Below are positions 7,124-58,917 of a stretch of DNA of 64,000 bases, in pieces. The stretch is from Candidatus Saccharimonadales bacterium (lineage in GTDB: Bacteria; Patescibacteriota; Saccharimonadia; Saccharimonadales; UBA10212): assembly GCA_038245195.1 (NCBI GenBank), contig JBBRSU010000001.1:121-64120 (forward strand), written 5' to 3'. Positions within the stretch are counted from its first letter, which is position 1; every line of letters begins with the position of its first letter. The translations under genes and the position numbers were made by a program. The notes beneath the pieces were generated by a model. The model searched no databases. It had not been told where the DNA came from and saw only the letters and a program-made list of their open reading frames with translations.

Positions 7124-7733
7124 CTGTTCCCACCTCTCTTATAAAATCGGCCTTGTGTTCCTCTAGCATGGCCATCAAATACTGGCTCTGGTTACCCAAA
7201 TCAACATTGTGCTGTAAAGTTTCGCTCAAAAATGAGGCCATAGCGTCGGCCAGTTTGGTATCTATTTGCTGAACCAGTTGCTGTTTTTCGGCTTCTAGTT
7301 CTTTGTCTATCCTGGCTTGAACTTCGGTTTGGTGTTTGGCAACATCTTCTCGAATACCGGCCATTTTGCTATTAGCATCCTTGTGTAAATCACCCAGCTG
7401 GACGCGATATTTTTCCATTTCGCCAGATACAATATCGGTCGCCAGCCGTTTAACAAGCCGATTTATTTCTATGGCTTCGGTTTCTAAATCAGTATTGAGT
7501 TTTGATGAGGTATTATTTAAGGCCGCTGACATTTTTATCTCGGCTTCCTCGATTAAGCGCCGTTTTAGCTCAGGCGATAGGATATTCTCGGGGGGTTGGG
7601 CCCCGCCCAACTGGATGGTTTGGTTACTAGACCGAAAATGGCGGCGGTAATAGGCATAGCCATAGCTAGCTAGCGCACCAAGAATGAAAACTTGGAAGAA
7701 AAGTAGAAATTGTAATAAAGTACTTTCACTCAT
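7101..7733 (-). CDS. atpF: F-type ATPase b subunit (peripheral stalk)
   Basis: 210 aa with a single N-terminal TM helix followed by a long charged coiled coil. Position is upstream of atpH. Confidence 0.65.
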   Translation of the reverse strand: MSESTLLQFLLFFQVFILGALASYGYAYYRRHFRSSNQTIQLGGAQPPENILSPELKRRLIEEAEIKMSAALNNTSSKLNTDLETEAIEINRLVKRLATDIVSGEMEKYRVQLGDLHKDANSKMAGIREDVAKHQTEVQARIDKELEAEKQQLVQQIDTKLADAMASFLSETLQHNVDLGNQSQYLMAMLEEHKADFIREVGTDAVETAT

Positions 7734-7736
7734 AAA

Positions 7737-8576
7737 TTAAAATTTAGTTAACACCATATAGATTGAACCCACACTGACCCCTAAAATAATAATCACCAGC
7801 CCGGACAGTTGAATAACATTTCGATACACCGCGGCTTGGGCCATCGGGTTACGGCCAACCGAGATGATACTGCTTCGTATCAAAGAATAAACAATACTAA
7901 CCACCACAACTAATGTTACTAGGAATATGACAATGCTAATAATTATTGGCAAGGCGTTAACTTTCTTGCCGGCCAATGAATTAGCCAGGTTCTGCAGAGC
8001 TTGGGGGATGATGGTTCTATCGGGGGTTTTATAAAAATACGAGACACTAACCAAGAGTGGCACTGTACCAACCGTAACATTCTCTTTCTCGCCTTTAACT
8101 CCAGTGGTTGTCAGTTTTCGAGCCGTGCTATTGGGAAAATTGTCTTGGGCAACGCCAATAATTTTAGCGTTGTCGGTGGCCTTCATACCGATACCATCGA
8201 TAGGCGAGGCCGTGATTGAATCGCCCGAGGTAATTTTGCCATTTATATCCGAAACCAACACTTGCTCCAGCCCGCTTTGGGCCACATTAACTTGGTTGCT
8301 GCCGCCTGAAGAAATTGATAACTGCGACCCGTTTTCGCTAACCGACACTCCGAAAATATCAGCCGAATTGGAGATATTAGAGCCAGTAACTCGGTCTGAG
8401 TAGCCTTTTTGCAGGCTAACAATCGAGCCGTCCGGTAAACTACTATCAGAGGCAAAGGATTGCGAAACTAGGGTTGTGGCACTAACCAAAACCGGCACCA
8501 TAAAGCTGGCGATGCCCAGTCCAACCGCTAGGCGGTATCGGGGATTAATTAGACGGCGATTGGCTATTTTTATCAT
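7737..8576 (-). CDS. Exported protein with a C-terminal two-helix hairpin resembling a degenerate ATPase c subunit; first gene of the atp operon
   Basis: Stop codon is 3 nt from the atpF ATG. Signal peptide MIKIANRRLINPRYRLAVGLGIASFMVPVLVSA, an approx 170 aa Ser/Gly/Val-rich ectodomain, then ...IVYSLIRSSIISVGRNPMAQAAVYRNVIQLSGLVIIILGVSVGSIYMVLTKF. Start moved from 8612 to 8576 because a TGcTATACT -10 box lies at 8592-8600, inside the longer ORF. Confidence 0.6.
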   Translation of the reverse strand: MIKIANRRLINPRYRLAVGLGIASFMVPVLVSATTLVSQSFASDSSLPDGSIVSLQKGYSDRVTGSNISNSADIFGVSVSENGSQLSISSGGSNQVNVAQSGLEQVLVSDINGKITSGDSITASPIDGIGMKATDNAKIIGVAQDNFPNSTARKLTTTGVKGEKENVTVGTVPLLVSVSYFYKTPDRTIIPQALQNLANSLAGKKVNALPIIISIVIFLVTLVVVVSIVYSLIRSSIISVGRNPMAQAAVYRNVIQLSGLVIIILGVSVGSIYMVLTKF

Positions 8577-8816: not shown

Positions 8817-8824
8817 TAAGGCTT

Positions 8825-8859
8825 TTTAAAAATACTTGACTTGTTAAGTATTTTTAAAA
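8825..8859. repeat. AT-rich inverted repeat containing copy A of the conserved 22-nt near-palindrome; probable bidirectional terminator
   Basis: ttttaaaAATACTTGACTTGTTAAGTATTtttaaaa, lying between the convergent mini-ORF and the 8854 gene. Confidence 0.6.
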
Positions 8860-9981
8860 ATGAACGTACTGGTGAGTTGGTTTTTGTGCCCGCAGGCTTT
8901 TGATGTTGCCCGAAATGTCATTTAGGTTAAAAACAATGTGCTCGGCGGTAAGATTATCTCCAGAAATGCCGGTTAGTTTAACGATTTGAAAGCTTGGGCC
9001 CTGGTTGGCTAAAACTGGGCTAGCCAGGATTATGTCAGACAGCTGGTTTAGCTTCATATCGTACAAAGCATTAACTACACTGGGTGGTAAATTGGGATTG
9101 GTTTTGGTAATTGAAAACCCGTAATCACCCCCGTTAGTTTTGGCCGATGGATCATCGGATACCTGCTTAGCAATAGTTGCAAAATCGGCCCCCGCTTTAA
9201 GCTGTGCCAACGCGTCGTTAGCTTTTTGATTGGCTGTGGTATCTAGTTTGGCAACTACTTTCTCTGTCAGTATTTCCTGTTTCAAGCTACGTTTAAAATC
9301 GTTTATCGACCAGCCCCAATAGCTCCGCAAAACGTCTTCGAATACTTTATTATTACCGCCCAGGCGGTTTTGATTACGGACTTCCGCTAATCGGTCATTA
9401 ACGTCTTTATTGCTCACGCCTACTCGGTTTTGGCTAGCCAGTTGTTTTACATAAGCATCATTTATAACGTTATCTAGGGCTTGTTTACGGAAAGCTACCA
9501 ACTGTTGGTGGTCAGCGCCAGCAAAGTTTCGCTGCTGCTGCGATTCATAGTAATGCACATAGTGGCGAAGTTCGAAAAAATAGTTTTCGTAGGACACATA
9601 GTGGCCGCCGGCTTTGGCAATCGGAAAAGGGACTACCTGAGTTACTCGATATAGGAAGGTATTGTACTGATAATATCGATATAGCCCCAAGAAGCAATAG
9701 ACAAACAAAGCGATAACTGCGGCCACCATGACGCTGGCGGTGATAGTAATAATTCGACGTTTGGAATGAGCCAATGGGTATATATATTTTCGGGCACCTT
9801 TAAGGACCTGTTCGCGATGTTCACCGATGTTCTCGGTGGTAATTTTTGGGACGTTATCTAAGCTAGGGCTATCATCTGTCTTATTAAGCGGATTTAAGCT
9901 GGCGGCCCGCTCGGCGACTACCTCTGGCATGATCTCTTTGGCTTTTTTTAGCCGGGGGTGTAGTTTGGGTCTTTTGACCAT
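8854..9981 (-). CDS. Membrane-anchored PpiC/parvulin-type peptidyl-prolyl isomerase (PrsA/SurA-like)
   Basis: 375 aa with an N-terminal TM helix and a SurA-N-like helical region. Parvulin signature DFATIAKQVSDDPSAKTNGGDYGF. Confidence 0.8.
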   Translation of the reverse strand: MVKRPKLHPRLKKAKEIMPEVVAERAASLNPLNKTDDSPSLDNVPKITTENIGEHREQVLKGARKYIYPLAHSKRRIITITASVMVAAVIALFVYCFLGLYRYYQYNTFLYRVTQVVPFPIAKAGGHYVSYENYFFELRHYVHYYESQQQRNFAGADHQQLVAFRKQALDNVINDAYVKQLASQNRVGVSNKDVNDRLAEVRNQNRLGGNNKVFEDVLRSYWGWSINDFKRSLKQEILTEKVVAKLDTTANQKANDALAQLKAGADFATIAKQVSDDPSAKTNGGDYGFSITKTNPNLPPSVVNALYDMKLNQLSDIILASPVLANQGPSFQIVKLTGISGDNLTAEHIVFNLNDISGNIKSLRAQKPTHQYVHF

Positions 9982-9984
9982 CGT

Positions 9985-10566
9985 TTAAGTGTTCATCTCC
10001 TCATGTTGGGGCGTTCTAGCACTATGGTGAATGCCTAAATCGCGTAAAATATGCACCATCTTGGTTTGGATTTTCTCCGGATGGTGCACCTGTTTTATCA
10101 CCAAGTCGCCCACGTAAGTTTGCACTACTATTGTACCAAAGTGCAGCACTGTTTCTTCCAAGCCGGTAATCTGGTAGTTAATCATTTGGATTTGATCCAA
10201 CCCAATATCAACCACATTGACTTGCAGTAGTGAGCGATTCTGTTGGATGAATCGTTTGTTAGTCATAATATAAACGCTAAAGTACCAGCGCACCCACCAA
10301 GGAAAAATTAAAATCATCGCTAGCAAAAAACTGGCCACCATACTTTCAAAAAAGAAAGCGATAGTTGGCGGATTGGTTTTATCAACGTAGGTCAGAATCA
10401 AGGTGTAAAGTGGCCCAACCAAGGTACCGAAGGCCGCCAAGATTAGACCTTTACGCATAATTATTGGGTGTTTTCTAAAAACTAATAAGGTTTCTTCGTC
10501 TTCGAATTGTTCTTTAAAATGTTTAGCTTTAGTTTCGGGCTTGGCTTTGGCCGGCTTTTCGCTCAT
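9985..10566 (-). CDS. Membrane protein with a bacterial PH-like (YdbT/DUF304-type) domain
   Basis: 193 aa with two or three TM helices, then YIMTNKRFIQQNR...FGTIVVQT, typical of bPH_2 domains. TACAAT lies 6 nt upstream of the ATG. Confidence 0.6.
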   Translation of the reverse strand: MSEKPAKAKPETKAKHFKEQFEDEETLLVFRKHPIIMRKGLILAAFGTLVGPLYTLILTYVDKTNPPTIAFFFESMVASFLLAMILIFPWWVRWYFSVYIMTNKRFIQQNRSLLQVNVVDIGLDQIQMINYQITGLEETVLHFGTIVVQTYVGDLVIKQVHHPEKIQTKMVHILRDLGIHHSARTPQHEEMNT

Positions 10567-10614
10567 GGATATATTGTAACTAAAAATGGTCTAAAGAGTT
10601 AGAATGGATTGGAC

Positions 10615-10689
10615 GCCCCTGTAGTTCAATGGATAAAACAACTCCGTCCTAAGGAGAAGCTAGAGGTTCGAATCCTCTCGGGGGCACCA
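10615..10689 (+). tRNA. tRNA-Arg (anticodon CCT)
   Basis: Hand-folded cloverleaf. Acceptor GCCCCTG/CGGGGGC, T arm AGAGG-TTCGAAT-CCTCT, anticodon loop GTCCTAA, encoded CCA. Confidence 0.85.
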
Positions 10690-10697
10690 TAAATTTT

Positions 10698-11192
10698 TTA
10701 CTGAGTTAGATGTTGATGGGCAGTTTTGTAGACGTGAAGCTCTTCTTTGGTGAACCAATGGTCAATTTCTTGCTTGGCTTCTTTAGGGTCGGCTGAGGCA
10801 TGGATAAGGTTTGGTAGGCCACCGCCCTTTTCATTAGCGTGGTCAATGGTCATGTGGGCGTAGTCACCCCTAATAGTGCCGGGTTGGGCTTTGTGGGGTT
10901 CGGTTTCGCCAACCATCTTTCGGACAGTCGGCACGGCCTGAACACCCTCTAAAACAGCCGCAATCACCGGGCCACTCTCCATAAAATCAGCGTTACGGCG
11001 ATAGACTTCTTCGCCACGCCGACTAATCAGTTGCCCAATATTTTCATAATGATGGTGATAATGTGCTTCATCGGGGCTGACCATTTTAAGACCAACAATC
11101 TTCAAACCAGCCCGCTCGAATCGGCTTAATATTTCGCCAGCGATGCCCCGGGCAACGGCATCGGGCTTAAGTACAATCAAAGTTTTTTCCAT
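10698..11192 (-). CDS. ndk: Nucleoside diphosphate kinase
   Basis: MEKTLIVLKPDAVARGIAGEILSRFERAGLKIVGLKM... and the NLIHASAD active-site His motif. Confidence 0.95.
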   Translation of the reverse strand: MEKTLIVLKPDAVARGIAGEILSRFERAGLKIVGLKMVSPDEAHYHHHYENIGQLISRRGEEVYRRNADFMESGPVIAAVLEGVQAVPTVRKMVGETEPHKAQPGTIRGDYAHMTIDHANEKGGGLPNLIHASADPKEAKQEIDHWFTKEELHVYKTAHQHLTQ

Positions 11193-11253
11193 TAACTACA
11201 ACTTTAACAGATATAAAATCGATAGTAAATCTGGCGAACTACCAAGGGCGCTC

Positions 11254-12189: not shown

Positions 12190-13578
12190 TCAGCAAGCAC
12201 CCCATTTATAGGTACCGTCACTATACAAACAACCATTACCTGGTGTGCCCCCATCGGCCCTACAGAACCCTGCCGCCTCGTTTGGAATAAATGTCCCATC
12301 TAGCAAGCAACCAAAGACCGTTCTAACTGGAGTAGCACAACTATCTCCACCGCAAGTGGGTGGGCAACCCGGCGGAGTTATACAGCCACCACCGCCTCCA
12401 CCACCGCCTCCGCCTCCGCAGGCATCGCCGCCGCAGGTAGCCGGGCAGCCAGGAGGTGAAATGCAGGCAATGATTGGGCCAGTCACAGGGCCGGCTTGTG
12501 ATGGTGTTGCATCCTGGCAGGTGCTATCTCCACTTGGGTCATTACCAGTATCTACTTGCGGTGTATCAAAATTACCTCGAGCACTTACAGGTACCCTGAA
12601 AAGCTTGCAAATAGTGTTCATAGACCACACCGCATTTATGGGGCTGTTGTATTGGTTAGAGTTATCGAGAATTGCCCTTACTCTTTGTGATATATCGTTT
12701 CCGGTGCCAGTTATATCTAAAACGCTTTGGTTCCCTGTGAGTTGCAGTACTCTGCCCCCAGGATTTGTTGCGACTATAACCCCAGATAACGGTGTGTACA
12801 TAGCGGTTATACGTACGTAATATAAATTACCGGCTGATTGCAGTCCGTTAACTGACGAGACGCAAAACTGGTGTGGTGAGCTGGCATTCGGTAAGGCTAC
12901 GCCACCCGACTGGCAGTTACCGGATACAAATCCTCCATTCGACCCATAGTTCACGGTGTTCGACCCACCACTCGAAGGATACAGAAAGTAATTACGGGAC
13001 TTGCCGGTCAGCGTACTATTATCTGTCGCTGGTGGGGGAACAGGATATATCGCGGTTCGCAGGACTCCTGTGGCGTTCGGGGAAATAGCATCTTCTTTTG
13101 GCAAGAACCCTAAACCCCCTAGGGTTGATGTGTTAGAAGAGTTTTGCCAGCCAAAGTATAAACTATCTAAAGCAGGCTCGGTAATCTGATAAACTCGTGA
13201 TTCGCCGGCCTTTAGTTTAAATAAAATCTGCTTGGGGGCGGTGTCGATTATCACACAAGAGTATCGAACTAGATTATCACCGCTAATATTGCCTCCGGCT
13301 ACAAAGTTATTATTTGTCGGCGGGTCGCAGTTTGGATTTGCACCTCCCCCGGAATTTAGGTATGCTCTAGCATCATTGATACCCGACTCGGCTGCATAGT
13401 ATGCGACCGCCGAGAGCTGGCGATCCAGTGCTCTTTTGACCTCTCGGTTCATCAGGCGCGAAAAGCCCACGCTGACTAAGGCTAAGACTGTCATTAGAAT
13501 CATTACGACCAAAATCGATGCTACACCATTTTGGTCTGATTTGGTTTTCTGCCCGTTCATGTTGCTTATATTTAACAT
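12190..13578 (-). CDS. PilX-N-type pilus-associated protein with a Cys-rich C-terminal module (putative tip protein or adhesin)
   Basis: Last gene of the pilin cluster. N-terminus GVASILVVMILMTVLALVSVGFSRLMNREVKRALDRQLSAVAYYAAESGINDA is PilX_N-like. Start trimmed to ATG 13578, 4 nt after the upstream stop. C-terminus carries a duplicated C-I-S/T-P-P-G-C-P-x-T-C-G-G-D-x-C motif around an 11-Gly run. Confidence 0.65.
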   Translation of the reverse strand: MLNISNMNGQKTKSDQNGVASILVVMILMTVLALVSVGFSRLMNREVKRALDRQLSAVAYYAAESGINDARAYLNSGGGANPNCDPPTNNNFVAGGNISGDNLVRYSCVIIDTAPKQILFKLKAGESRVYQITEPALDSLYFGWQNSSNTSTLGGLGFLPKEDAISPNATGVLRTAIYPVPPPATDNSTLTGKSRNYFLYPSSGGSNTVNYGSNGGFVSGNCQSGGVALPNASSPHQFCVSSVNGLQSAGNLYYVRITAMYTPLSGVIVATNPGGRVLQLTGNQSVLDITGTGNDISQRVRAILDNSNQYNSPINAVWSMNTICKLFRVPVSARGNFDTPQVDTGNDPSGDSTCQDATPSQAGPVTGPIIACISPPGCPATCGGDACGGGGGGGGGGGCITPPGCPPTCGGDSCATPVRTVFGCLLDGTFIPNEAAGFCRADGGTPGNGCLYSDGTYKWGAC

Positions 13579-27837: not shown

Positions 27838-28314
27838 CTACTGCTGCGGCGGTTTGATGAAGTACAGATTTGCGAACAGCTGGTCCGACAGAACACTGTT
27901 GTATGCCTGGACGTTCATCCTGACGTAGTTGCTCTTGGTTCCCGGCCAGACACCGTCCGGGAATTGTTTGCTGGTAAAAATGAACGTCACCTTGAACTTC
28001 ACCGTCTTGCCCGGCCTGAGCAATTTGATGTGGAATTTGCAGCTTCCACCAAACTCCGCGCTCTTGACGCAGCCAGCCGGCGTGCCGTAGATGAATTTCC
28101 TGGAGCTTATCTGTGCCCAGCCGTTACGCATGGCGATGTTTGTGCCGTTGTGCACCACCAGCATCTCGCTGGCCGGCTGGTCCAGCACGAACTGGTTGGG
28201 TCCATAGTCCAGCAGGACCGAGATGTCACCTCGGTACGCGCCGGCACTCAGCGGAATAACCAGCATAACTACAAGTGCCGCTAGCAGCGACACCCAAGTG
28301 ATGATGTTTCTCAT
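27838..28314 (-). CDS. Secreted hypothetical protein in GC-rich islet A
   Basis: MRNIITWVSLLAALVVMLVIPLSAGAYRG signal peptide and a GGGAGGG SD 5 nt upstream. Start trimmed from 28428. The antisense ORF 27796-28284 was judged spurious. Confidence 0.5.
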   Translation of the reverse strand: MRNIITWVSLLAALVVMLVIPLSAGAYRGDISVLLDYGPNQFVLDQPASEMLVVHNGTNIAMRNGWAQISSRKFIYGTPAGCVKSAEFGGSCKFHIKLLRPGKTVKFKVTFIFTSKQFPDGVWPGTKSNYVRMNVQAYNSVLSDQLFANLYFIKPPQQ

Positions 28315-28498
28315 TCTACCCTCCCGGGTGTCGTCGTCGAGCAGTAGGCTCGAAGAGTAATGTGCGGCCCCAAGACGGAGCCGCCTTGAAGATACTTTAG
28401 TCATACCACCAACAGAGATAAAAAGCAATTGCTAGTGCTTAGAAACTATTTCTTAGTATGTGAGCGCCGGTACCCGAACCGACGCTCAACAAATACAA

Positions 28499-39740: not shown

Positions 39741-41027
39741 ATGAATGCCAGGAAAATTGTTAAAAAACTAATTCCACGCAGTCTTTTTGCAAAGATAGAA
39801 CCACTCGGACATTTGGCCGAGGCAGTGATTTTTAACCTGTTATACGGCTTTCCGGCCCGTGGCTTTAAGGTTATCGGCATCACTGGTACTAACGGCAAAA
39901 CCACTACGGCGTTTTTAGTGCATCGGATGCTACACACGGCTGGCTACAAGGTTGGCCTAATGACCACCGTTGCCTATGGGGCCGGTGATAATATCAAACC
40001 TCAGGTCTACCATATGACTAATGTGCCGGTGCCAGTGATGATGAAACGTCTTAAGTATCTTAAATCTCAGGGGGTTGAGTGGCTAGTTATGGAATCTACT
40101 AGTATGGCTCTGGCCCAAAACCGGGTGTGGGGCGTGCCATTTCAGCTGGCGGTTATGACTAATATTAGCCAAGACCATCTGGACTATCACAAAACCATGG
40201 CCAACTATATTAAGGCTAAGCTTAAGCTGTTCCGCTTAACAAATAACAACAAAAAGGGCCTGCAAACAGGGGTAATTAACGCCGACGATGCCACCGCTGG
40301 GCAGTTTAGCTCGGCCATTTTGCATTCTAAGACTTATGGGATAAATAGTGGAGACTTGCGAGCCAAAGACATTAAATTATCGGCCTTGGGTGTGAGCTAC
40401 ACGGCCAAATCAACGAGCACAGAATATAAAATATCCAGCCATTTACCAGGCCAGTTTAACATCTATAACAGCTTGGCGGCGGTGAGTGTTGGCGAAGTGT
40501 TGGGGCTAAGCAAAGACCAAATCCAGCAGGGAATTGCCGCACTTGGGGGAGTGCCAGGCCGAATGACGGCCATAGACGCCGGACAAAGCTTTAGTGTAAT
40601 TGTAGACTTCGCACACTCGCCAGATGCCCTACAAAACGTTCTAACAGCTTGCAGGGGGCTCACAAAGGGCAAGGTAATACTAGTGTTTGGGGCTACAGGC
40701 GACCGCGATAAGTCTAAACGGCCGATTATGGGTGAAGTAGCGGTTAAACAAGCCGATTTAATTTATTTAACGGATGATGAAACCTACACCGAAAACCCAC
40801 AAGCAATCATCGAAGAAGTTTATAAGGGTATCGAAACCGCTGGTGGCCAAGCCAAAACCACCATAATTGGTGACCGACTTAAAGCTATCAAAGCCGCTTT
40901 TGCAACCGCTAAAGCCGGCGACACGGTGTTATTAACTGGTATCGGTCACGAAACTACCCGCAATATGGGCGGTAAAGAAGAACCTTGGAACGAAATCGAA
41001 CTAGCCCAAAAACTCCTTAAGAAATAG
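39741..41027 (+). CDS. murE: UDP-N-acetylmuramoyl-tripeptide synthetase (Mur ligase, MurE-like)
   Basis: GITGTNGKTTT P-loop. Mur ligase middle and C-terminal domains (GATGDRDKSKRP). Start trimmed from 39606 to ATG 39741. Confidence 0.85.
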   Translation: MNARKIVKKLIPRSLFAKIEPLGHLAEAVIFNLLYGFPARGFKVIGITGTNGKTTTAFLVHRMLHTAGYKVGLMTTVAYGAGDNIKPQVYHMTNVPVPVMMKRLKYLKSQGVEWLVMESTSMALAQNRVWGVPFQLAVMTNISQDHLDYHKTMANYIKAKLKLFRLTNNNKKGLQTGVINADDATAGQFSSAILHSKTYGINSGDLRAKDIKLSALGVSYTAKSTSTEYKISSHLPGQFNIYNSLAAVSVGEVLGLSKDQIQQGIAALGGVPGRMTAIDAGQSFSVIVDFAHSPDALQNVLTACRGLTKGKVILVFGATGDRDKSKRPIMGEVAVKQADLIYLTDDETYTENPQAIIEEVYKGIETAGGQAKTTIIGDRLKAIKAAFATAKAGDTVLLTGIGHETTRNMGGKEEPWNEIELAQKLLKK

Positions 41028-41090
41028 AACGGCCGTGCACCCGGGAGAGGGCAGCACGGCTAAGATAGTTCAGAACCAGTATGAGTCTTT

Positions 41091-41125
41091 GCGGGGAGGC
41101 CTGGATTAGGCCCTGGCCTCCCCGC
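41091..41125. terminator. GC-rich perfect hairpin at the left edge of islet B (bidirectional terminator candidate)
   Basis: GCGGGGAGGCC-13 nt-GGCCTCCCCGC. A second hairpin GCCGTGC...GCACGGC lies just after the murE stop. Confidence 0.6.
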
Positions 41126-41130
41126 TCGAT

Positions 41131-41562
41131 TCAGGCGAACCGTTGTTTCCGTTGGCAGTACCGACGACCCTTGTAACGCTCCTTTCGACGCTGAACTTTC
41201 AGCGTCTGGTTACGCTCAAGGCGCAGGGCCTTCTCGGCACGTTTGACAGTTCGAGGCACAAGGCTCTCGAGAAACCATGTCTTGGCCTTTCGCACGAGTG
41301 CGAGAGCTTGCGTGGGTAGTACGCCGATGAAGACAATCTTGGCAAAGGCTTGTTGGCGTTGCTTGAGCTTGTGTGGTACATGCTCACTCACCTCCACCAG
41401 TTGCTTGTTGGGCAGTCGGCTCGACATGTAGTCGCAGAGCTCCTGCCGGAGTTCCCTGGGGAAATCCAAACGGGGATTCTCGGCAAGATACACCGTGGTC
41501 GTAGTGCCGTTGGTTGGTCCCAGACGCTCAAGTACAGCGTGTGGCGACGATACGGTTCGCAC
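41131..41562 (-). CDS. Hypothetical basic protein in GC-rich islet B
   Basis: At 143 aa this is the longest ORF in the region, with a very Arg/Lys-rich C-terminus. No family recognised. Several alternative-frame ORFs exist, so the frame call is weak. Confidence 0.4.
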   Translation of the reverse strand: MRTVSSPHAVLERLGPTNGTTTTVYLAENPRLDFPRELRQELCDYMSSRLPNKQLVEVSEHVPHKLKQRQQAFAKIVFIGVLPTQALALVRKAKTWFLESLVPRTVKRAEKALRLERNQTLKVQRRKERYKGRRYCQRKQRFA

Positions 41563-41771
41563 ATGTCCTCCTGGGGTAGACAGCGATCTGAACTAGTCGG
41601 AGTATAGCGTTATGAGTTTATATTGGTCAATATTTTATTGCTTTTGCAAGCATAAGCTTGACAAGTGAAAGAATAGTGGTAATATTGTTTCATTCGATTA
41701 GGTCCTCCGAAAAGGGCTTGCAAGTAGCACATATCCGTTCTCTCCCCAGACTCGAGAAAGGAATCATAGGC

Positions 41772-42107
41772 ATGTGTGTCGATCAGGAACTGAGCGAACG
41801 CCACGAGCGCCGCCTACAGCAGAAGAACCGGTCACGCACCTCCAGAACGATAAATCGAATGAAGGTAGCCGTGCGTCACAAGCGCGGGCACATCAGCGTC
41901 CCTCTGGTCCTGGCGGCCATCGACGAGGACGTCATCGACGCTCTCGGCCCTGTCAAGATCCTGGGCAATCGTCTGCCGCAAGTGGTTGAGCCCGTGCCGT
42001 CCCTCGAGGAGGCGCGGGCACCCATCTATCACAGGCGTCACGAGGACGAACAAGTACGCATGCGATGGCTCGCAGAGAATCCCTTCCCGGGTCTTTCCGC
42101 CGCCTAA
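41772..42107 (+). CDS. Hypothetical protein in GC-rich islet B, divergent from 41131-41562
   Basis: ATG 41772 is preceded by gaaaggaa and by TTGACA-N16/17-TAATAT at 41658-41686. 111 aa with a basic N-terminus. No family recognised. Confidence 0.4.
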   Translation: MCVDQELSERHERRLQQKNRSRTSRTINRMKVAVRHKRGHISVPLVLAAIDEDVIDALGPVKILGNRLPQVVEPVPSLEEARAPIYHRRHEDEQVRMRWLAENPFPGLSAA

Positions 42108-42143
42108 CAAGCATCTCCACATGGATCTAATCGAATGAATCAA

Positions 42144-42178
42144 GATGGGCGGAAGGCCTAAAAAACCTTCCGCCCATC
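42144..42178. terminator. GC-rich perfect hairpin at the right edge of islet B
   Basis: GATGGGCGGAAGG-cctaaaaaa-CCTTCCGCCCATC, lying between convergent 41772-42107 and the GIY-YIG gene. Confidence 0.65.
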
Positions 42179-42203
42179 ACTCGCACACCGCCGATAGGCG
42201 GTT

Positions 42204-42470
42204 TTATTTTATGCTTGACCCTGTGGAATCAGATTTGAGTCGTTTCTTTAAATACATATGCCCATAAAAGGTTTTTAGATATTTTTCACGTTTCATGGCA
42301 TCGGTCTGTGAACGACAGGCCTCGAAATAAATTAGTTCAAACGGACGACGATATGAGGTTGAATGGACTTCACCGTTTTGATGTTGCTCAAATCTGGCTT
42401 CAAGATTGTGGGTATAACCAGTATAGTGCTTACCGTCTTTTAAGCTTCTTAGGACGTACGTATAGTACAT
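42204..42470 (-). CDS. GIY-YIG (URI) domain nuclease-family protein
   Basis: MYYTYVLRSLKDGKHYTGYTHNLEARFEQHQNG...KREKYLK. Start trimmed to ATG 42470. Confidence 0.8.
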   Translation of the reverse strand: MYYTYVLRSLKDGKHYTGYTHNLEARFEQHQNGEVHSTSYRRPFELIYFEACRSQTDAMKREKYLKTFYGHMYLKKRLKSDSTGSSIK

Positions 42471-42506
42471 TAAGGTACATAATACACCTTGAAGCATTCC
42501 ACAGGG

Positions 42507-42536
42507 TTGACACTGTATTTGGCACTCGGGTATTAT
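42507..42536 (+). promoter_or_regulatory. groESL promoter (TTGACA, 18 nt spacer, TATTAT)
   Basis: TTGACA at 42507-42512 and TATTAT at 42531-42536, overlapping the CIRCE element. Confidence 0.65.
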
Positions 42537-42545
42537 GAGTGCTAG
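42519..42545 (+). promoter_or_regulatory. CIRCE operator (HrcA binding site)
   Basis: TTGGCACTC-N9-GAGTGCTAG compared with the consensus TTAGCACTC-N9-GAGTGCTAA. Lies 52 nt upstream of groES. Confidence 0.8.
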
Positions 42546-53771: not shown

Positions 53772-53807
53772 TATGATAGCAGGGGAGGGGCTTTAGGGTA
53801 CAGAGCA

Positions 53808-53835
53808 CAGAATACTTGACTAGTTAAGTATTCTG
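53808..53835. promoter_or_regulatory. Copy B of the conserved near-palindrome, in a divergent promoter region (candidate operator)
   Basis: cagAATACTTGACTAGTTAAGTATTctg. It overlaps a TTGACT -35-like hexamer 19 nt upstream of TATAAT (53841-53846), and that -10 box lies 8 nt from the ATG at 53855. Confidence 0.5.
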
Positions 53836-53854
53836 TAAGCTATAATATTATGAT

Positions 53855-57992: not shown

Positions 57993-58072
57993 AAGGAGAT
58001 GATGAACTTGCCGACTTTGCACGGTAGTTTGAAAGGAGATGATGAACTTGCCGACTTTGCACGGTAGTTTGA
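57993..58072 (+). repeat. Perfect 40-bp tandem duplication of the RBS plus the first 11 codons of the downstream gene
   Basis: aaggagatgatgaacttgccgactttgcacggtagtttga occurs at 57993-58032 and again at 58033-58072. Confidence 0.95.
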
Positions 58073-58917
58073 TCGGTTTGGACCCCTACGAGTTGACTGG
58101 AGTCCGCAAACTGGCGGAGCTCACAGGTCTCGAGTTGGGTCTCAGGCCTTCCAAAGTTTCTATCCAGCGCGTCTTTGACGCCTGGGGGACCGAAACAGCG
58201 TTCGAACAGAACGCCCCAGCTGTCGCCCAGGCCCTAAAGCTGGACAGCGGGACAGTTCCTGATGACGAGGTTCTGGACCTTCTCGATCAGACAACCACAC
58301 TCGACAAGATCGACATTCGGTCGCTCGACAGCCATATCCAGCCAACTGGTAGCCTGGTCGCTATCGCGACCGGTGCAACCGTCCGCTGGATGGAATATCG
58401 CATAAGGCAGATGCAACAGCACGTCAACAACGGCTACAGCATCGACAAGGTCTACGCCGTCGCCAACCACAATCGTCCCTGCAGCTTGCCTACCGAGGTG
58501 AATCATCCGGTGATCGTAGCTCTCCAGGAGGACTTAGGCCAGCAGCCGATGGAGCACCACGCGATGGAAAGGCTTCTCACGGAGGCCCAGTTTCCGGCGG
58601 AATTCATCACCGGCCCGTCGCTTGAGGCGAACATCGGGACTCTGATGGACCGCCATCCGGAGCTCGCCCATGCTCGAACCTACGTGCCTGTCAACGGCAA
58701 CGCCACCTACATCGCGTTGGCCGTTCGGCGGTTCATCCGGCAGTCTCAACCCTCCTTCGACGGGGGGCTGGACCAGTTCTTCTTTAGCCAGCGGACAATA
58801 CCGCTAGCCCGAACGCCGGAGCAAGCGGTCGACACTCTGCATTATCAGCGTCCGCTGACTGTGTTCAGTGGCCTCGCTCGGCTGATGAACGAGCTCTATC
58901 TCCTCCCGAGGAGCTAG
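58039..58917 (+). CDS. Hypothetical protein in GC-rich islet C
   Basis: 292 aa ORF with clearly G/C-ending codons, unlike neighbouring genes. No family recognised. Confidence 0.55.
   Translation: MMNLPTLHGSLIGLDPYELTGVRKLAELTGLELGLRPSKVSIQRVFDAWGTETAFEQNAPAVAQALKLDSGTVPDDEVLDLLDQTTTLDKIDIRSLDSHIQPTGSLVAIATGATVRWMEYRIRQMQQHVNNGYSIDKVYAVANHNRPCSLPTEVNHPVIVALQEDLGQQPMEHHAMERLLTEAQFPAEFITGPSLEANIGTLMDRHPELAHARTYVPVNGNATYIALAVRRFIRQSQPSFDGGLDQFFFSQRTIPLARTPEQAVDTLHYQRPLTVFSGLARLMNELYLLPRS

Follow-up and report, generated by a model that had tools for sequence, protein, structure and literature searches.

Two small genes, probably long resident upstream of groES-groEL, form a GC-rich islet in a Saccharimonadales genome

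How should a GC-rich islet with two unrecognised genes be read in a genome of lower GC content: as imported DNA, as a paired gene module or as an inherited part of its locus? We address this question for positions 41030-42200 of a 64-kb stretch of contig JBBRSU010000001.1 from a Candidatus Saccharimonadales bacterium, the whole of which is referred to as the window. The host is a member of the Saccharimonadales (TM7, within the Candidate Phyla Radiation, CPR), a group in which the gene order tsaD-murE...groES is general. The GC content of the islet is 55.7%, compared to 45.9% for the whole window, and in a scan with 300-nt segments (mean 0.46, standard deviation 0.043) it peaks at 0.57-0.63. 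The original prediction, made from the letters of the DNA, had described two divergent genes of unrecognised family leaving an AT-rich core and bracketed by perfect GC hairpins. The two open reading frames (ORFs) and the core between them are:

41131-41562, minus strand: ORF143, a basic protein of 143 aa with a GTG start and an isoelectric point (pI) of 10.96, belonging to an undescribed family of ~140 aa
41563-41771: AT-rich core, GC content 41.6%
41772-42107, plus strand: ORF111, 111 aa, pI 9.83, with an N-terminus MC(V/S) kept in three lineages

We compared the window with a set of related loci (labelled L001-L098; P-numbers such as P0006 and P0016 denote homologous proteins or contigs). 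With moderate confidence we conclude that the islet consists of two separate, clade-specific small genes, which have long resided upstream of groES-groEL in a subgroup of soil Saccharimonadales and are expressed from GC-rich, end-protected mRNAs.

Both frames are genuine genes. They had been called with reservation, as several frames are open in this DNA (the row 41881-41940 does hold 41 G+C in 60 nt), but a codon-periodicity check puts the three-base signal in exactly these frames. The ratio of nonsynonymous to synonymous divergence (dN/dS) is 0.12-0.30 for the islet genes overall, 0.19 for the ORF111 orthologue P0006 at 60% identity, and 0.01-0.075 for GroES. ORF143 has full-length homologues at 64-72% identity, and conservation extends over the full length of 19 family sequences. 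Ribosome-binding sites and starts are conserved as well: the CCCCAGGAGGA and the GTG start of ORF143 are kept in the window, L002, L003 and L007, and ORF111 has a conserved GAAAGGAA-N8-ATG (MCVDQ), the conserved start being ATG 41772 rather than the TTG at 41658 with which a mechanical call of this frame begins. One could argue that the islet holds no genes at all, being a structured non-coding RNA or decayed remnants with frames left open through GC-richness; several frames are indeed open, both arms of the islet fold more stably than dinucleotide shuffles (folding z of -5.2 and -4.6), and hairpins and end pairing are conserved. Periodicity, the conserved ribosome-binding sites and starts, and dN/dS exclude the decayed-remnant and RNA-only readings, the first of which had been the alternative named in the original prediction, and no alternative-frame ORF is conserved. 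Rfam returned no real match even at E = 10 (the window at gathering score yielded three tRNAs only, and 40900-42400 gave chance-level matches with E of 0.2-8), so that the islet is not a known RNA. A gene-free islet is consequently scarcely credible; a dual role as RNA and protein is possible.

ORF143 is a member of an undescribed family of ~140 aa that is fixed beside groESL. An exhaustive hidden Markov model search of 1.84 billion representative proteins returned 16 relatives, all of 136-159 aa and aligned from end to end. In all nine lineages with upstream context (window/L004, L001/L002, L007, L088-L093, L094, L095, the P0016 contig, L096 and L097/L098), the family gene stands divergently upstream of groES-groEL. 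Identity between lineages is 29-73% for the family and 72-97% for GroES, with a correlation of pairwise distances of r = 0.6. The islet had been described as dropped between murE and a GIY-YIG gene; this placement does not hold, since the constant partner of ORF143 is groES-groEL and the GIY-YIG gene is a lineage-specific insertion. These data define a family of 16 representative clusters without a Pfam or NCBIfam model, which is invariantly linked to the chaperonin operon. Literature searches turned up no described small basic gene divergent from groESL and nothing relevant on GC-rich genes in Saccharibacteria. To our knowledge, almost no lineage-specific genes of soil Saccharimonadales have been characterised experimentally. 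In more distant lineages, a gene of the arginine-deiminase (ADI)/dimethylarginine dimethylaminohydrolase type (PF02274/PF19420) sits directly 3' of the family gene, between it and murE (L088 8465-9376, L096 6673-7467, L097 2772-3569); the window is without this gene.

ORF111 is a rarer, separate and dispensable cassette, composed of promoter, 5' motif, ORF, 3' motif, GC hairpin and terminator. It is found in window/L004, in L005/L006 (60% identity) and in L008 (~25% identity; L008:10795-11178), the closest relative by murE (70% identity), where the promoter layout is the same and 5' ATTCGATTAGGTC and 3' CCTAATCGAT motifs are present. It is absent from L007 and from all distant loci. In L002, ORF111 has been removed, with the deletion junction at CCAATC, a 6-bp repeat of the L005/L006-type sequence, and promoter, 5' motif and terminator have stayed in place. 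At least seven lineages carry an ORF143-family gene without ORF111 (L001/L002, L007, L088-93, L094, L095, L096 and L097/98), and in L006 and L008 the divergent neighbour of ORF111 is not an ORF143-family gene.

This distribution bears on the module that had originally been suspected, in which the two genes would form a toxin-antitoxin, regulator-effector or small anti-phage defence pair around a shared control region. Small divergent genes leaving a ~200-nt AT-rich core with two good promoters would suit such a pair, as would two basic proteins of unknown family and closed, stable mRNAs like those of type I toxin genes such as hok. However, the genes are not co-inherited, and ORF111 was lost by simple deletion in L002 with ORF143 kept. 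Since their pairing is not obligate, none of the three suspected modules holds, in agreement with the empty PADLOC and Pfam searches: neither ORF143 (protein and family alignment, E <= 0.01) nor ORF111 matched Pfam, PHROGs, PADLOC or NCBIfam, and none of the four candidate ORFs matched a PADLOC-DB family at E <= 1. The products had thus rightly been called unrecognised. Neither is a short hydrophobic peptide, and a housekeeping-operon neighbourhood kept over deep divergence is atypical of defence islands. We regard a functional pair as very unlikely.

The composition of the islet departs from that of the host genome. GC at codon positions 1, 2 and 3 (GC1/2/3) is 0.65/0.42/0.62 in ORF143 and 0.71/0.41/0.72 in ORF111, compared to 0.54/0.40/0.46 in host genes. 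It had been considered that relatives might carry the segment with native composition; they do carry it, and its composition is equally non-native there. GC3 is 0.62-0.82 in the ORF143 family (nine of nine lineages measured) and 0.63-0.83 in the ORF111 family (three lineages), compared to 0.34-0.58 in the flanking groES, groEL, murE, tsaD and ADI genes. Synonymous divergence (dS) between orthologues of the islet genes is 0.75-2.0, at or near saturation, and 0.75-2.1 for groES/groEL. Because the GC3 excess survives saturated synonymous divergence, which under neutral pressure should have erased it, we infer that the composition is maintained, and that high GC3 is a property of both genes rather than a scar of import. 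An overlapping or antisense gene as the source of the GC-richness was rejected, no alternative frame being consistently open beyond the synonymous-shuffle expectation.

The competing account is that the islet was acquired from a high-GC donor, e.g. the epibiont's actinobacterial host or its phage, came into the murE-groES gap ancestrally and has not yet fully ameliorated in any descendant. The atypical GC content and codon usage are in line with this, and the gap is a variable spot across the order, empty in L010, L021 and L025 (100-200 bp) and filled with 1-4 kb of different genes in further loci. A further 19 murE loci of Saccharimonadales lack the family, a GIY-YIG cassette has been inserted next door, and ORF143 and GroES show a slight mismatch in rank (73% versus 90% identity between window and L007, 65% versus 97% between window and L002). 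L008 has additional ORFans in the same gap, several of them with 65-70% GC (7350-8550 and 9600-11210, GC3 0.83-0.86), between murE and the contig end, which also speaks for import; an AT-richer ORFan of 336 aa lies between them. GC-rich ORFans in the murE-groES gap may be a clade-wide phenomenon.

Against acquisition stands the lack of a donor: the 1.84 billion proteins held only the 16 relatives, and all of those with context adjoin groES in Saccharimonadales-type synteny. Searches of phage and plasmid collections by tblastn gave no match to an islet gene, and scans of metagenome and viral contigs with both family alignments, one of which is too divergent to use, returned no relatives. Self-BLAST found no copies of the islet elsewhere in the window, and no integrase or transposase ORF, nearby tRNA or direct repeat was found at its borders. 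All four close lineages with sequence (L001/L002, L005/L006, L007, L008) have one or both islet genes at the site, and gaps that are empty or filled differently occur only in more distant Saccharimonadales. Position and orientation are constant even though family proteins are only 29-40% identical between lineages, and the GC3 excess over the flanks should have been erased by neutral amelioration. The islet thus shares high GC, atypical codons, small proteins of unknown function and a variable gap with horizontally acquired islets and ORFan cassettes, but differs from them in that its odd composition is conserved across saturated synonymous divergence, in its synteny and in the absence of mobility genes and border repeats. 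We consider ongoing amelioration of DNA imported by an ancestor improbable. The locus corrects the default by which high GC in part of a lower-GC genome is taken as a sign of import. The anomaly here is inherited and probably maintained across species with saturated synonymous sites, which is unusual and makes the locus a clean natural system in which to test for selection on the GC of synonymous sites or on mRNA structure in a reduced CPR genome.

What the constant neighbourhood of groESL could mean depends on the region between the genes, which contains the following elements:

41601-41630, minus strand: ORF143 promoter TTGACC-N18-TATACT, both hexamers kept in L002 and L007
41641-41651, minus strand: promoter-upstream element GCTTGCAAAAG next to an A-rich tract, ~10-12 nt upstream of the ORF143 -35 box
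41658-41685, plus strand: ORF111 promoter TTGACA-N16-(TG)TAATAT, kept as TTGACA..TAACAT in L005/L006 and TTGACA..TAGTAT in L008
42204-42507, minus strand: GIY-YIG gene, 97 aa (Pfam GIY-YIG, E = 1e-15), in a cassette spanning 42204-42511
42507-42545, plus strand: groES promoter TTGACA-N18-TATTAT with the controlling inverted repeat of chaperone expression (CIRCE), TTGGCACTC-N9-GAGTGCTAG at 42519-42545, overlapping the -10 box

The core region of the islet holds four promoter-like sites compared to 1.4 expected, and the plus-strand promoter noted earlier in the AT-rich core proved to be present as described. The inverted repeat TTAGCACTC-N9-GAGTGCTAA of CIRCE occurs at groES only and is unique in the 64 kb (0.02 expected by chance); it is conserved in all related loci examined and is not found in the ORF143 or ORF111 promoters. 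In compact relatives (L007, L088, L094, L095, L096, L097), the groES promoter lies back to back with the promoter of the ORF143-family gene. An ATTGAC box equivalent to the ORF143 -35 box is found in L088, L094, L095 and L096, and the GCTTGCAAAAG element, whose exact match is unique in the window, has a constant spacing to the -35 box in the window, L002, L007, L088, L095, L096 and L006. An element of this type and CIRCE are both present in all seven intergenic regions read. GCTTGCAAAAG may be an operator or UP element. The layout resembles the CIRCE/HrcA-controlled groESL operons of Gram-positive bacteria in its canonical CIRCE over the groES -10 box, with the ORF143 family as a fixed divergent neighbour; we know of no divergent small basic gene in the described CIRCE regulon.

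The GIY-YIG gene is a recent, lineage-specific insertion outside the conserved unit. Its cassette has a perfect 12-nt inverted repeat at the edges (ACCCTGTGGAAT at 42218-42229 and ATTCCACAGGGT at 42496-42507, the left arm lying within the C-terminal codons of the gene) and is flanked by TTGAC at 42215-42219 and 42507-42511. It parts the ORF111 terminator from the groES -35 box and is absent in L005/L006, where the terminator of ORF112 abuts the groES promoter. Exact look-up of the GIY-YIG protein returned the same locus only.

An AlphaFold2 (AF2) model of ORF143 (mean predicted local distance difference test score, pLDDT, of 76.7) consists of a beta-beta-alpha-beta-beta-alpha domain and, C-terminal to it, a helix of ~40 residues rich in Arg and Lys; the ORF111 model is of low confidence. 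We infer that ORF143 binds nucleic acids, as ORF111 probably does too, and that it is functionally linked to the chaperonin/stress locus. Identity as a MIF/tautomerase was tried and rejected: MIF is the best profile match in the PDB at E = 0.17, with an hhalign probability of 0.4%, and there is no Pro-1 after the initiator Met.

ORF143 could alternatively be a transcription factor acting on the shared intergenic DNA, for example on GCTTGCAAAAG, and controlling groESL, itself or both, with the GC-richness and hairpins being incidental. Divergent regulator-target pairs are common in bacteria, and the invariant back-to-back layout with the groES promoter, the conserved element between the two -35 boxes and a very basic protein with a long helix would all suit such a role. 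However, neither Pfam, NCBIfam nor the fold search detected a helix-turn-helix or other DNA-binding domain in ORF143, groES already carries a canonical CIRCE, and ORF111 (in the window and L005-type loci) and the GIY-YIG gene (in the window) put ~0.5-0.9 kb between ORF143 and the groES promoter, with neither gene lost. The conserved GC3 and the 3' hairpins would moreover be left unexplained, and we rate this regulator scenario as doubtful. In the explanation we favour, two long-resident genes with protected mRNAs, the ORF143-family gene is transcribed divergently from a groESL promoter of the CIRCE/HrcA type, and its product would be tied in function to the chaperonin/stress locus, as an RNA- or ribosome-associated stress protein or as a local DNA-binding regulator. 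The ORF111 cassette lies between ORF143 and the groES promoter, and the GIY-YIG gene was inserted later.

The proposed protection of the mRNAs concerns their ends. For ORF143 these comprise:

41588-41596, minus strand: 5'-leader segment UAGUUCAGA, partner of 41066-41074
41567-41572, minus strand: Shine-Dalgarno sequence AGGAGG, in the arrangement CCCCAGGAGGA-N4-GTG
41091-41125, minus strand: perfect GC hairpin without U-tract, beginning 6 nt past the stop codon
41066-41074, minus strand: 3'-UTR (untranslated region) segment UCUGAACUA, complementary to the leader segment
41032-41060, minus strand: outer terminator hairpin between the murE stop (41027) and ORF143, with a 7-bp stem GCCGTGC/GCACGGC followed by CGTTCTATTTCTT

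The 64 kb contain nine perfect hairpins of at least 9 bp (mean of 2.55 in shuffled sequence), and the only GC-rich ones among them are 41091-41125 and 42144-42178. The stems had been given correctly, as 11 bp for the first (14 bp if one mismatch is allowed) and 13 bp for the second. They are real, one strong hairpin at each gene end, and are not island borders but 3'-end mRNA structures kept in orthologues. Wherever 3' sequence is available for the family, in eight lineages (window, L002, L003, L088, L094-L097), a hairpin follows within ~15 nt of the stop codon, with stems of 6-16 bp and sequences that differ between lineages. The outer hairpin has a T-rich tail as in an intrinsic terminator, which is clearer in L002, where the orthologous stem GCCGCGC/GCGCGGC differs by a compensatory C-G to T-A change and is followed by CTCTTTCTTTTTT. 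In the window, L002, L003, L094 and L095, the frame beyond the family stop codon (41131 in the window) is open for another 20-36 codons; the stop is TGA in most members and TAG in L094. As the extension peptides are not conserved, we judge this open frame to be a by-product of the GC-rich hairpin, and with one member ending in TAG, a selenocysteine insertion (SECIS) or read-through role of the hairpin is unlikely.

Leader and 3' UTR of ORF143 can form a perfect 9-bp helix, which is equalled or bettered in 1% of shuffles and is part of the minimum free energy (MFE) fold. Its leader motif TTAGTTCAG is kept in L002, L003, L007 and L097, and L097 has a 10-bp counterpart, GTTCAGACCA/TGGTCTGAAC, at the same relative positions. 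A second, nested helix of 9 bp pairs codons 1-4 (GCGAACCGU, 41560-41552) with the last codons (41143-41135) and recurs in L002 and L003; in L088, L095 and L096, conserved VPS codons (CCGTCTC) pair instead with GAGACGG at or after the stop codon, and L088 has an 11-nt match between the Shine-Dalgarno region and the 3' arm of its own hairpin. Altogether, equivalents of the end helices with 7-11 bp are found in L002, L003, L088, L095, L096 and L097. RNAduplex energies were uninformative for these ends because GC-rich shuffles pair equally, so exact-helix counts were used instead.

The ends of the ORF111 transcript are composed of:

41682-41705, plus strand: left arm of an inverted repeat at the 5' end of the transcript, core TTCGATTAGGTC
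42123-42146, plus strand: right arm of the repeat, in the 3' UTR, predicted to close the mRNA into a panhandle with the left arm
42144-42178, plus strand: perfect 13-bp GC hairpin without U-tract, in the 3' UTR ~36 nt past the stop codon
42187-42210, plus strand: canonical intrinsic terminator ACCGCC-GATA-GGCGGT (42187-42202) followed by TTTATTTTAT

The two arms are complementary at 21 of 24 positions and pair in the MFE fold of the transcript. Four copies of the core TTCGATTAGGTC are found in the window compared to 0.41 expected, the exact and best copies being the two arms, and the core is conserved in L005 and L008. Predicted duplex energies are -29.4 (window), -27.8 (L005) and -30.3 kcal/mol (L008), with shuffled arms reaching -14 to -18 +/- 3.5 kcal/mol, but the most stable L005 shuffle (-30.2) surpassed the real duplex; the extension of the duplex outside the invariant core varies by lineage. 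Long-range complementarity of the transcript ends that is kept in relatives is thus found for ORF111, and ORF143 has partly conserved 9-bp helices. Taken together, the comparison is suggestive of 5'/3' complementarity that is conserved for ORF111 and less uniformly so for ORF143. In L005, a hairpin of 12 bp with unrelated sequence (TTGGTGGGGGCT/AGCCCCCACCAA) occupies the same place as 42144-42178, and the terminator is kept both in L005 (ACCGCC-ACTC-GGCGG and T run) and in L002, from which ORF111 is deleted. An integron cassette with attC site or a miniature inverted-repeat transposable element was rejected, as R-box motifs are absent and each of the repeats occurs only once in the window. The coding sequence of ORF111 contains a third copy of the repeat core, AATCGAATGAA, at 41853-41863, which is an 11-nt perfect complement of 41689-41699 in the 5' arm; as it is not kept in L005, it is maybe a chance match or a lineage-specific alternative pairing.

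Folding of the coding sequences points in the same direction. Compared to synonymous-codon shuffles, seven family members have folding z values of -2.6, -1.0, -4.3, -1.7, -2.0, -1.5 and -1.4 (mean -2.1), whereas four control genes range from -0.15 to -0.8. The probability of start-codon pairing is raised to 0.83, compared to 0.48 in controls. In the explanation we favour, the GC-richness would therefore act at the level of the mRNA, giving a structured transcript with a strong perfect hairpin at its end, followed by the terminator, and 5'/3' pairing would yield a closed, nuclease-resistant mRNA. With the start-codon region of ORF143 predicted to be sequestered as well, translation may need melting or processing.

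Several observations weigh against this explanation. RNAalifold found no consensus 5'-UTR structure across the ORF143 family, and although 5-6 of seven members have a paired Shine-Dalgarno sequence when folded singly, the probability of this pairing equals that of host controls (0.52). The end helices of ORF143 involve different segments in each lineage and are weak or absent in L094, L097 has the leader/3'-UTR helix only, and two control genes also reach helices of 9-10 bp. For ORF111, the repeat core is invariant in sequence, so that it could be a DNA or protein-binding site instead of an RNA helix. On the protein side, only one of five AF2 models of ORF143 was confident, and profile and fold searches gave no significant relatives in sequence or fold. 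Codon usage is atypical, with scores akin to the codon adaptation index of 0.70 and 0.665 for the islet genes compared to a host range of 0.68-0.81, which fits foreign origin too, and the absence of the family from the 19 other murE loci leaves room for an ancient acquisition.

A more far-reaching proposal is that the ORF143 family is an unrecognised partner of the groESL stress module in CPR bacteria, whose expression is gated by its own mRNA, stored closed and translated upon heat melting or processing, with ORF111 following the same closed-mRNA design. Here, the 5'-3' helices would cover the start codon, and the 3' hairpin would mimic and mask the Shine-Dalgarno sequence. We advance this as speculative and, at present, unlikely. 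An RNA thermometer that occludes the Shine-Dalgarno sequence lacks clear quantitative support: pairing of this sequence is at control level, that of the start codon is raised, and RNAalifold gave no consensus. If gating applied, selection would keep the entire transcript closed and rich in GC, and the gene-wide GC of synonymous sites would be a selected regulatory trait.

Known systems offer partial parallels. The mRNAs of hok-type type I toxins are compact and stable, and a fold-back between 3' fbi and 5' tac holds translation off until processing or refolding. The islet transcripts would share with them a compact mRNA predicted to be closed by 5'-3' pairing; however, their products of 111 and 143 aa are hydrophilic instead of being membrane peptides of ~50 aa, no antisense RNA gene is evident, and the genes are chromosomal, syntenic and located beside groESL. 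In the B. subtilis hbs mRNA, which encodes the nucleoid protein HBsu, a 14-bp helix between 5' and 3' UTR modulates RNase cleavage and hence mRNA stability (PMC5737220). In both cases, the mRNA encodes a small basic protein, which is known to bind nucleic acids for hbs (PMC5737220) and presumed to do so here. The helix has 14 bp in hbs, compared to 21 of 24 positions in ORF111 and 9 + 9 bp in ORF143. The proteins are non-homologous, though, the coding sequences of the islet transcripts are GC-rich, with an additional perfect hairpin on the inner side of the terminator, and one ORF143 helix is predicted to cover the start codon. In the S. aureus icaR mRNA, an anti-Shine-Dalgarno motif UCCCCUG of the 3' UTR pairs with the 5' UTR (PMC3868564). 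Similarly, the islet has a C-rich 3' element, the CCUCCCC-type arm of a 3' hairpin, able to pair with its own ribosome-binding region; in contrast to icaR, this arm is already paired in a perfect hairpin, and predicted Shine-Dalgarno pairing is at control level. We read hbs, icaR and hok as resemblances in how the mRNA might work, not as family membership. The islet thus comprises an undescribed protein family with a rarer companion gene, and its regulatory RNA design would be of known kinds, though unusual in form and conspicuous in composition. If the mRNAs are closed as proposed, CPR examples would join the few bacterial mRNAs controlled by 5'/3' pairing; if they are not, there are still two conserved hypothetical genes with ordinary terminators and a GIY-YIG insertion in the groES promoter.

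Outside the islet, the window has three further GC-rich patches (57-62% GC in 300-nt segments): 58039-58917 (plus strand), an ORFan of 292 aa flanked by a kinase-like gene and polA; 27838-28428 (minus strand), a 196-aa ORFan; and 12190-12650, the Gly/Pro/Cys-rich C-terminus of a 496-aa ORF. Pfam matched neither of the two ORFans. All three patches lack perfect hairpins of 9 bp or more and are unlike the islet in sequence. Two AT-rich perfect palindromes, at 8823-8860 (15-bp stem) and 53807-53836 (11-bp stem), have the core ATACTTGAC(T)NGTTAAGTAT in common and may represent a repeated operator or terminator motif.

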